DNA from: Anaeromyxobacteraceae bacterium
GTDB lineage: Bacteria > Myxococcota > Myxococcia > Myxococcales > Anaeromyxobacteraceae
Direction: 5' to 3'
NCBI GenBank assembly: GCA_047602405.1
Contig: JASGHJ010000002.1
Span: 1,312,001-1,376,000 of the forward strand
Length of the DNA: 64,000 nucleotides
The position numbers and the translations under genes are program-made. The notes below the pieces were generated by a model. It ran no database searches. It was not told the origin of the DNA and worked only from the letters and a program-made list of their open reading frames with translations. Shown piece by piece: positions 13,325 to 39,571 of this stretch; within the stretch, counting starts at the first letter, position 1, and each line of letters begins with the position of its first letter.

Positions 13325-14040
13325 GGGTCAGCGTCCGCGGCAGGCGCGTGGAGGGACGTATCTGACCGAGGGTGCGGACGGAAGCTCGAGCGGCCCCTTC
13401 GGCCCGCCGCTGCCCAGGGCTCGCAGCGGGTCAGCAACCACGTGCGTGGGGAGGAGACCGCGAAAGGCCGGCCGTCCGGCGCGAGCGCGGCGGCCGTCGA
13501 GAAGCGGTCGGCGTCCGCCTCCTGGACGGGCTCTCCCCGCCGCGAGGCGTGCGAGGCGAAGTTGTCGAGTACGTAGCGGAGCGCGTTCCGGACCTCGGCT
13601 GGGGTCCGGAGCAGGTGTGCGTGGTAGCGGTCCGCGAACACCTGGCCGCGGCGCTCCATCAGCGCGTTGAGCCCCTTCGCGAGACGGCCGGCGAGGGCGC
13701 GCATGCCCTGTGCGAGGGCTCCGGCGTCGGCGGCCTCCACGATGACGTGCAGATGGTTGCCCTGGACCGACAGGTGGATCACGCGGAAGTCCTCGCGGCT
13801 CCTGACGCCCTCGAGCGCAGCGGCGATCACCCGCCACGAACGCAGGCTGCGGAGGTTCCAGACGTGCTCGCGGACGCGGAGGGTCACGTGGACGGGGGTC
13901 CATCTGCCGAATCGGAGCGTGCGCCGATGGGAGACCCCGGGGCGTTCTCCGGAAGCCTTCCGCCCGGCGCCCGCCCGCTCCCCGCCCCAGCCGTTCACGG
14001 GCGGCAGGTCGAATGCGAGCTGCGGAGGGCGGGCGGACAC
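13321..14040 (-). CDS. REP-associated tyrosine transposase-like protein (Y1/HUH)
   Basis: PVHVTLR, SVQGNHLHVIVEA (HUH), GQVFADRYH and ALRYVLDN (catalytic Tyr). Confidence 0.85.
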   Translation of the reverse strand: MSARPPQLAFDLPPVNGWGGERAGAGRKASGERPGVSHRRTLRFGRWTPVHVTLRVREHVWNLRSLRSWRVIAAALEGVRSREDFRVIHLSVQGNHLHVIVEAADAGALAQGMRALAGRLAKGLNALMERRGQVFADRYHAHLLRTPAEVRNALRYVLDNFASHASRRGEPVQEADADRFSTAAALAPDGRPFAVSSPRTWLLTRCEPWAAAGRRGRSSFRPHPRSDTSLHAPAADADP

Positions 14041-36227: not shown

Positions 36228-37652
<1,425 letters not shown>

Positions 37653-37674: not shown

Positions 37675-37950
37675 CCGTTGGCATGCGTGACCGTGGGGGC
37701 GAAACGCGCCTCCGCGACGGCGCTTGCTCGGACGGGTTTGAGACGGAGCAGATCGCCGGAACCGTTGCCGTTCCAGGGCGGTGATCGGCGGCAGCAGGCC
37801 TGCGGTTGAGTTGCGCGTGACGGCACGGCGCGCTTCGCGCGCCATGCCGCCACACGCCCACATCCCTTGGCCTGCAATGCTGCGATGTGGAGACGGAACC
37901 TCGCCCGTCGCTCGCTGCGCGCCGCTGCGGAGGCGCGTTTCGCCCTTGGG
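37675..37950 (-). ncRNA. Putative ~250-nt structured ncRNA, copy A
   Basis: Perfect 19-bp closing stem 37697-37715/37927-37945; internal hairpin whose three C-A mismatches become G-U on the minus strand; homologous to copy B. Confidence 0.6.
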
Positions 37951-38096
37951 CCGAGCGGACCAAGGTCGGCCGATACTGCTGGGGTGCAAGTGCGGAACTA
38001 ACGTTGAAGAAGATGAGGCGAACGCGAACGCCCACGCCAAATCGTCAGTCGTTCACCAGGAACCCGGCAGTTTCGGACGCACCATCGTGCTCCACG

Positions 38097-38371
38097 CCCG
38101 AGAGCCAAACGGGCCTCCGCAGCAGCGCGCAGCGAGCGACGGGCGAGGTCCCGTCACCACATCTCGCATTGCAGGCCAAGGAACCATCGCGCGGGGACGG
38201 CGCCGTGCGCTCGAGCGCACGACGCCGTCACGCGCACATGGTCCGCAGGCCTGCTGCGCGATCACCGCCGTGGAACAGCAACGGTTCCGGCGATCTGTTC
38301 CGTCTCAAACCCGTCCGAGCAAGCGCTGTCGCGGAGGCCCGTTTGGCTCCCACGGACACGTATGCCGACAG
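38097..38371 (+). ncRNA. Putative ~250-nt structured ncRNA, copy B (inverted relative to A)
   Basis: Perfect 19-bp closing stem 38102-38120/38331-38349 with compensatory changes relative to copy A. Confidence 0.6.
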
Positions 38372-38408
38372 CAGGAGGCCCGTTTGGCTCCCACGGACAC
38401 GTCTGCCG
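38333..38408 (+). repeat. 35-bp tandem direct repeat (41-nt period)
   Basis: GGAGGCCCGTTTGGCTCCCACGGACACGT(A/C)TGCCG at 38333-38367 and 38374-38408. Confidence 0.9.
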
Positions 38409-38440
38409 GCTGAGGGCGCCCTGGATGGATGGATGGGGGC

Positions 38441-39571
38441 TCACCCGCCCGCCATCACCGGCAGCTTCAGCTCGAACCGGGCGCCGCCGAGGGGCGACTC
38501 GTCGACGTGGATCGTGCCGCCGTGCTGGACGACGATGGCGTGCACGATCGAGAGCCCGAGCCCGGACCCCTTGGCCTTCGTCGTGAAGAACGGCTCGAAC
38601 ACGCGGTCGCGCACGCCCTCCGGGACGCCCGGCCCGTCGTCGTCGAGATCGATGAGGACGTGGGCGCCCGCGTCGGCGGTGGCGTCGGGGTCCGCGGCGA
38701 GGGGGCGGCAGGAGACGCGGACGCGGCCGCCGTCGCCCACGGCCTCGAGGGCGTTCAGGCCGAGGTTCACGAGCACCTGGCGCAGGCGCTCCTCGTCGCC
38801 CGGGATGGGCGGGCAGGGGACGAGGTCGCGATCCAGCTTGACGCCGCGGCGCTCGGCCTCGACCTCGAGGAGATCGAGCACCTTGCGCACCACCGGGACC
38901 ACCTCGACGGGCTTCGGGGCGAAGTCGCGCGGGCGGGCGAACTGGAGGAAGTCCTCCAGGATGTGATCCAGGCGGCGGATCTCGTCGCGCACCAGCGTGA
39001 GCGGCTCGAGGAGCGGGCCCTGAACGTCCCGCTCCATCTTCCGGATGCGGCGCTCGAGCACCGAGAGCTGGAGGGCGGCGGCGTTGAGCGGGTTGCGGAT
39101 CTCGTGGGAGAGGCCCGCGGTCATGGTGCCCACCGCCGCGAGCTTCTCGACCATCTGGGCGCGGCGGGCGAGCTCGCGCTTCTCGCCGTGCAGGCGGACC
39201 TGCCGGAGCGCCTGCTCGACGGTGACGAGGAGCTCCTGGGTGGCGCAGGGCTTCACGAGGTAGGCGCAGGCGCCGGCGCGCACCGCCGCCACGGCGGACT
39301 CGATGGTGGCGAAGCCGGTGAGGAGCACCACCTCGCCGTCGGGCTCGAGCGCCTTGAGGCGCGGGGCGAGGGCGGTGCCGTCGCCGTCGGGGAGCTTGAG
39401 ATCCACGAGCGCGACGTCGAAGCCCTCCGAGGCGGCGGTCAGCGCGCCCGCGCAGGTGCCCGCGCCCTGGACGGCGTAGCCGGCCGAGCTCAGGATCTCC
39501 GAGAGGTTCTCCACCAGCACCTCGTTGTCGTCGACGACGAGGAGCCTCGGGCGCCGCGCGGCCTCGCTCAC
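38441..39571 (-). CDS. Receiver-histidine kinase hybrid
   Basis: LLVVDD..DLKLPD receiver, then SHEIRNPL, NALEA, FFTTK..GSGLGL. Confidence 0.92.
   Translation of the reverse strand: MSEAARRPRLLVVDDNEVLVENLSEILSSAGYAVQGAGTCAGALTAASEGFDVALVDLKLPDGDGTALAPRLKALEPDGEVVLLTGFATIESAVAAVRAGACAYLVKPCATQELLVTVEQALRQVRLHGEKRELARRAQMVEKLAAVGTMTAGLSHEIRNPLNAAALQLSVLERRIRKMERDVQGPLLEPLTLVRDEIRRLDHILEDFLQFARPRDFAPKPVEVVPVVRKVLDLLEVEAERRGVKLDRDLVPCPPIPGDEERLRQVLVNLGLNALEAVGDGGRVRVSCRPLAADPDATADAGAHVLIDLDDDGPGVPEGVRDRVFEPFFTTKAKGSGLGLSIVHAIVVQHGGTIHVDESPLGGARFELKLPVMAGG

Follow-up and report, generated by a model that had tools for sequence, protein, structure and literature searches.

A dispersed family of paired giant hairpins behind converging genes in an Anaeromyxobacteraceae genome, probably a REPIN/BIME-like DNA element

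The window analysed here is a 64,000-nucleotide stretch of the genome of an Anaeromyxobacteraceae bacterium (G000, 74% GC), and the feature under study lies in the 788-bp gap between two genes that, as a sequence-only reading of the locus had described, converge on it; they encode a sigma-54 activator and a hybrid histidine kinase. The start of the activator gene probably lies further upstream than position 36396. The features of the locus are as follows.

36396-37652, plus strand: left flanking gene, encoding an NtrC-type sigma-54 activator; its stop lies 25 nt ahead of the element
37677-37696, plus strand: outer end of unit A, ~16 semi-conserved nucleotides followed by a GTGG foot (37693-37696)
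37695-37713, plus strand: REP-like mini-hairpin in the left arm of unit A (7 bp, 5-nt loop)
37697-37945, no strand assigned: giant hairpin of unit A, subtype A-n-x-p, comprising a 27-bp basal stem (37697-37723/37919-37945), side arms, the GCAGGCC helix and the apical helix
37834-37836, minus strand: apical loop of unit A, a GAA triloop
37946-38002, plus strand: conserved tail of unit A
38003-38043, no strand assigned: true variable spacer, ~41 nt
38044-38101, minus strand: conserved tail of unit B
38102-38349, no strand assigned: giant hairpin of unit B, subtype B-n-z-r, with its basal stem at 38102-38128/38323-38349
38211-38214: apical loop of unit B, TCGA
38350-38373, minus strand: outer end of unit B, with a GTGG foot (38350-38353)
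38374-38414, minus strand: stuttered second end module of unit B (mini-hairpin, foot and outer end), 88% like 38333-38373
38441-39541, minus strand: right flanking gene, encoding a response-regulator/histidine-kinase hybrid

The two units are inverted homologues, identical at 264 of 327 aligned bases (81%), with folding z-scores of -7.2 (A) and -7.6 (B) against 200 shuffles. Much of the sequence-only description of their structure is borne out. Each unit is closed by its own perfect 19-bp stem within the basal arms listed above, the three differences between these stems are matched on the partner arm and joined by a fourth, G-C to A-T, pair change, and the apical hairpins of both units and the GCAGGCC/GGCCTGC helix are present. 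The 146-nt unique spacer of that description was misjudged, consisting mostly of two ~57-nt tails that are common to all copies of the repeat, which leaves the ~41 nt at 38003-38043 as the unique part. It had also missed a 41-nt tandem duplicate at the outer end of unit B (38333-38373/38374-38414). Beside the element the 3' end of the kinase gene is trimmed in the window (38415-38443), while in the sister species G010 it is longer (L081:2000-2090).

The pair, previously treated as a lone one, has 29 further units elsewhere in the genome. BLAST and profile searches of the whole of G000 identified 31 units at 16 loci, comprising 14 pairs in which both hairpins are whole, one pair with its middle deleted (at C2:2545318, the two units of which lie outside the profile and module counts) and one solo unit; above 46 bits there were no further matches in G000 except self-palindromic echoes. 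A unit of ~330 nt consists of a 250-nt hairpin and a ~57-nt tail, and two facing units form a doublet of ~700 nt. From the outside inwards each unit displays ~16 semi-conserved bases, the foot, the 27-bp basal stem, side arms, the GCAGGCC helix, a ~21-bp apical helix, the return arm and the tail, and the arm of the basal stem alternatively forms a 19-nt mini-hairpin. The GTGG foot is present at the outer end of 19 of the 31 units and absent from 12, has no counterpart at the inner arm and lies on the strand opposite to that carrying the apical GNA loops described below. In the window and several other copies the end module (outer bases, foot and mini-hairpin) is tandemly stuttered. The middles of the pairs are variable and contain many short tandem repeats; four house an IS110 element and one a piece resembling an IS end, and the spacers are otherwise without genes.

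Both the pairing and the placement of the units are strongly biased. Subtype typing and sequence showed that the outer stems are unlike within all 15 pairs, and 14 of these combine a B unit with a non-B unit, an arrangement with a hand-calculated probability of ~0.002 under random pairing, although the copies are not independent. A same-strand stop codon lies within 165 nt of the outer end in 30 of the 31 units, the remaining unit overlapping the end of a gene; by rough gene calls, convergent junctions constitute 597 of the 2,891 junctions (~21%) in the genome. The arc around dnaA (C1:1-1.56 Mb, with dnaA at C1:1.06 Mb) is without copies of this or of a second giant-hairpin family (see below), while short repeats are plentiful there; the contig order is tentative.

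Beyond this genome the repeat is rare. It was found in 2 of 37 genomes of the genus, and a sequence model applied to 151 genomes of the order gave two true cases, a weak match in G065 being rejected as coding DNA. Pattern scans returned one true copy among 40 metagenome matches (L107) and none in the single viral match, and phage and plasmid collections contained no match to the unit. Literature searches found no published description of the repeat, and the repeat lists in the supplements of PMC3733652 and PMC11893778 may bear on its novelty.

The view that selection or repair acts on the single-stranded structure is supported by the alignment of 28 of the 31 units (A1, from which the two centrally deleted units and one more are absent). 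A 55-pair structure fitted to it is 92% paired, with double-sided changes at 14 of the pairs, and none of 500 shuffles reaches the covariation score; as relatedness between copies inflates covariation counts, this result is supportive rather than a test of significance. Raw folding energies are equal between the strands (-166.1 versus -166.3 kcal/mol, 29 copies), while dinucleotide shuffling favoured the inner-to-outer strand, the one named in the sequence-only reading, in 14 of 15 copies tested (z -10.4 versus -6.6), a bias that is partly compositional. This corrected bias fits an RNA as well as it fits a DNA strand. The argument from G-U pairs in that reading holds in part. The apical wobbles of unit A do favour the minus strand, but the apical mismatch of unit B is C.A on the plus strand, which is the transcribed strand in that reading, and an invariant G.T plus A.C tandem, present in the basal stem of 28 of 28 units, is equivalent on both strands. 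By a crude count, isolated mismatches on the outer-to-inner strand comprise 34 A.C and 19 G.T.

The tips of the hairpins point to DNA. Read on the inner-to-outer strand, 24 of 28 are GNA triloops (GAA in 10, GCA in 13 and GTA in one) in which G and A are fixed and the middle base is free. GCGNAGC is an extra-stable DNA mini-hairpin, the one cited RNA counterpart of which is much weaker (PMC13037366), and the short repeat family of the genome carries the same loops. Sequence signals for transcription were looked for and not found: the linear sequence of the window units contains no sigma-70 promoter, scored as -35/-10 sites, and neither unit is followed by a terminator. Rfam returned no match at gathering score for the window locus, where E<=10 gave chance miRNA-like matches alone, nor for five other loci of the family. 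Across sequencing runs all shares were under 0.2; contigs from one mixed soil RNA run covered parts of the repeat at a depth of ~2-4, and such contigs can be DNA and have no bearing on expression. Judged on sequence, the units likely fold as single-stranded DNA rather than as RNA.

The hairpins are mosaics of four nested segments, each of which occurs in two to four types. The left and right halves of a segment match in 28, 29, 29 and 26 of 29 copies, respectively; of the three copies with discordant apical halves, two seem to reflect ambiguous labels. Adjoining segments are nevertheless combined in all four ways. Around the apical segment the shared sequence is only ~10 bases on either side, and the halves of one bulge type stay together even though it hardly self-pairs. 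Given these short flanks and the barely pairing bulge, independent crossovers filtered by selection provide a strained explanation for the matched halves, although the purging of lopsided conversions by selection for pairing could be an alternative source of them. In the intact pair of G010 a ~75-nt tract centred on the tip is common to both units, with variants that occur in no G000 copy; this shows a direct trace of a tip-exchange event. Orthologous copies in G000 and G010 rank only 5, 16, 8 and 7 of 29 against paralogues, while the genes flanking the orthologous sites are 91-97% identical. As orthologous copies are not mutual best matches, the sites have been inherited and the sequences rewritten in place.

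Comparison with G010 also informs the gain and loss of copies. At the site of the window's pair G010 carries a short hairpin of unrelated sequence without any remnant of a unit, and the site is empty too in two other relatives that share the gene order; no target-site duplication was evident at the empty orthologue of this site or among the flanks. Eight of the 16 loci were examined for their orthologous sites in G010, and these comprised one whole pair, two partial pairs, one ends-only scar, one doubtful scar, one empty site and two that are not syntenic. A new insertion is implied at only one site, that of the window's pair, and complete loss in G010 would look alike. The two species differ in the nuclease SbcCD. 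G010 encodes SbcC and SbcD, neither of which has a tblastn match in G000, and at the orthologous sbcC-sbcD position of G000 (C1:111495-121088) the genes that flank the pair in G010 are in the interior of a contig and separated by other genes. Among 92 genomes of the bacterial family, sbcD scores over the cut-off in 44, including G010 and not G000; the 48 without it include many incomplete genomes, and none of those searched carries the giant-hairpin family. In E. coli SbcCD cuts a 246-bp interrupted palindrome as a hairpin during replication and recombination repairs the break (PMC6061781). It is likely that the absence of SbcCD lets intact pairs persist in G000, this being a contrast between a single pair of genomes. 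If SbcCD was also the maker of symmetric gaps, these gaps must predate its loss in G000.

Four pairs contain near-identical copies (99.9%) of an IS110/IS1111-type element with subterminal inverted repeats (L040, L042, L044 and L046). All four lie at one site in the tails, corresponding to position 37999/38000 in the tail of unit A. The non-coding region downstream of the transposase contains guide loops, which we take to be a bridge RNA, that match the tail target, while two relatives (L144 and L148) carry different guides, each matched to the target of its own element, which in one case is a GTAG REP. None of 11 loci related to these IS110 copies has giant hairpins. IS110 elements reportedly parasitise REPs, and here the IS110 element is a later parasite of the repeat tails. 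As the mover of the repeat it was rejected: it has its own ends, its relatives lie in other targets without hairpins, and its copies are 99.9% identical compared with 70-96% for the units. A different sequence, an IS end that we take to be IS21-like, occurs both in the spacer of another pair (L038, C1:2051480-2051700) and, in G010, in the tail of a second-family unit (L164).

G000 encodes several candidates for an enzyme that might act on the repeat in trans: four RAYT-like proteins, several Y1 proteins flanked by terminal inverted repeats (TIRs) and one single-domain GIY-YIG protein amid short repeats. One RAYT-like gene lies in the window itself:

13330-14010, minus strand: RAYT-like Y1 gene, scoring below the NCBIfam cut-off, with an extended copy of the short repeat just upstream; the arrangement is the same in G010

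Two others (C2:1013459 and C2:2438974) each lie between copies of a ~20-nt direct repeat that takes in the start codon region, and the fourth is at C1:1420711. The GIY-YIG gene (C1:1892791-1893114, in the region C1:1891801-1894200, L159) lies between tandem short hairpin repeats and has a 93% identical orthologue in G010. Neither the unit nor its mini-hairpin was present at any of 30 RAYT-like, TIR-flanked Y1 or GIY-YIG loci of G000 and its relatives (18 Y1/RAYT-like, 12 GIY-YIG), and the genomes and collections searched contained no autonomous copy with the same ends. RAYT-like candidates occur in 21 and GIY-YIG candidates in 14 of 37 genus genomes, and this wide distribution therefore singles out none of them. 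The search for an IS91-type Y2 transposase gave no match anywhere, controls included. Links of the giant hairpins to the short hairpin repeat, which has at least 204 matches in G000, are circumstantial: it adjoins the non-B end in 4 of the 31 units of G000 and at all five ends inspected in other genomes, and takes the place of a side arm in 2 of the 31. Derivation of the stems from this short REP family was rejected, the profile score being no higher than in 150 random windows. An attC/integron reading was likewise discarded, with no match to integrase model TIGR02249 over the cut-off and units that are inverted rather than direct repeats. A group II intron remnant was considered on account of tails ending in AY, and was dismissed for want of a domain 5 or an Rfam match.

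The closest likeness among known systems is to REPINs and BIMEs. As described in PMC3116915, PMC3337134, PMC3733652 and PMC8266576, these are extragenic inverted doublets that fold as hairpins, with compensatory changes and a preference for heterodimers, and they share with the present repeat IS110 parasites, ends repeated in tandem and, for 19 of its 31 units, a GTRG-like foot ahead of a small hairpin; the stuttered end modules resemble the tandem REP arrays in the first two of these sources. The extragenic inverted palindrome doublet folding into a hairpin, by which REPINs are recognized, is present here at about three times the usual length. According to the same sources a REPIN measures 89 bp, compared with the 250-nt unit hairpin and ~700-nt doublet of this repeat. 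Unlike a REPIN, the repeat is a doublet of doublets with a branched interior of four exchangeable segments and ~30 copies, its foot is variable and restricted to the outer arm, and no cognate RAYT was found. We do not file it as a REPIN, since the test for a cognate RAYT failed and the element is several times larger. The single-domain GIY-YIG gene amid short hairpin repeats recalls the layout of Ssn genes with their NTS/SRM repeats (PMC11893778), although the giant units themselves do not score as the short hairpin repeat. In that source Ssn proteins are shown to cut, not move, DNA, and the G000 protein is likened to them by layout only. The hairpins are also similar in size to the 246-bp laboratory palindrome cut by SbcCD, which PMC6061781 describes as repaired from the sister chromosome; the present case differs in being a natural multi-copy family in which repair would draw on other copies.

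G000 contains a second giant-hairpin family, with ~20 units at C2:3323061 and ~13 other loci (L158, L160). Its hairpins match those of the first family in size, form facing pairs behind stop codons and fall into subtypes, and it was likewise found in G000 and G010, yet profile searches in both directions found no sequence similarity between the two. This suggests a class defined by architecture. By eye, the return arm of the second family displays a sigma-54-like TG(G/T)CACG-N4-(G)TGCA spacing, and the perfect -24 letters are found on the opposite arm. A low-GC gene and a truncated unit lie inside one of its pairs (C2:278075-279630).

The locus contains one copy of a gene-less dispersed repeat, in which facing, unlike ~330-nt units sit behind the stops of converging genes, and we consider it probable that this repeat behaves as an oversized REPIN/BIME-like DNA element spread in trans and rewritten by repair between copies. 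Each unit likely folds while the DNA is single-stranded, and with one unit per strand a correctly oriented hairpin would be available on exposure of either strand. The repeat would be spread in trans by an enzyme that recognises hairpins, although no such enzyme was found. Were the folded stem cut across, or its tip broken, both arms would be removed to equal depth, and filling of the gap from another copy would swap the whole tip at once and thus yield matched left and right halves. Unlike partners would limit perfect pairing across the 700-nt doublet, convergent gaps may be tolerated because they lack promoters, and the loss of SbcCD would let intact pairs persist in G000. More tentatively, the two families may be members of a myxobacterial class of giant single-stranded DNA hairpin doublets that have size and architecture, not sequence, in common, recombine while folded by one-step tip swaps and bloom on loss of SbcCD, the families being independent members with a dedicated hairpin-processing enzyme; this broader possibility we hold well short of even.

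Several other explanations account for part of the data. A structure in mRNA that is useful to the host, either stabilizing 3' ends or acting as a barrier to colliding convergent transcription, and spread and kept for that reason, would explain why all 31 units, the solo copy included, lie just behind stop codons in the same polarity, why sites are inherited between species and why, in the second family, raw RNA energies favour the sense strand in 20 of 20 cases. We nevertheless regard it as unlikely: in the window's family the shuffle-corrected score of the sense strand is the poorer of the two (14 of 15), this strand bears a non-GNA loop, no U-tract is present, most copies are lost or collapsed in the sister species and only 2 of the 37 genus genomes have the family at all. 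The units may instead be paired single-strand priming or promoter signals, a hairpin on each strand starting primer synthesis or transcription for the copy cycle of the element or for the host. Repeats of the Frpo and ssi types are similar in size to the units, one unit lies on each strand and the second family has a pair with a gene inside it. GNA mini-hairpins also occur at the single-strand signals of phage G4, ssiA and N4 (PMC13037366). With no sigma-70 match, no GG-N10-GC sigma-54 spacing seen by eye in the window's family, and spacers devoid of genes other than IS, this proposal is quite unlikely.

The two paralogous non-coding RNAs that the sequence-only reading envisaged, transcribed outward from the spacer, draw on the strong folding of both units, the covariation and the preference for the inner-to-outer strand after shuffling. 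Such RNAs are hard to reconcile with 31 dispersed mosaic copies and an empty site in the sister species, with the lack of an Rfam match, promoter or terminator, with a hypervariable, IS-tolerant spacer, with a C.A apical mismatch on the proposed strand of copy B and with tip loops of a DNA type (GCGNAGC; PMC13037366), and we judge them very unlikely. That interpretation as a whole was mostly wrong, although the underlying feature is real. It had named a MITE in many copies as one outcome that would tell against it; many copies indeed exist, but without target-site duplications. The lack of these duplications also weighs against a classical MITE, in which the pair would be an internally deleted DDE or IS110 transposon and the units its two ends. 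Inverted, unlike ends and the IS110 transposase gene inside four pairs are in keeping with that model; the separate ends and near-identity of the IS110 copies, and their relatives in targets free of hairpins, leave it largely refuted and most improbable. An oversized REPIN/BIME-like DNA element remains our preferred reading.

These data remove a tempting ncRNA candidate and illustrate that covariation can arise in a DNA repeat. The matched exchange of left and right segments provides an unusually clean natural record of this process in hairpins, and the IS110 passenger is a natural example of a guide retargeted to a lineage-specific repeat. The contrast between the sister species, intact pairs where SbcCD is absent and mostly collapsed ones where it is present, opens to direct test the old idea of SbcCD as a limit on palindromic repeats.
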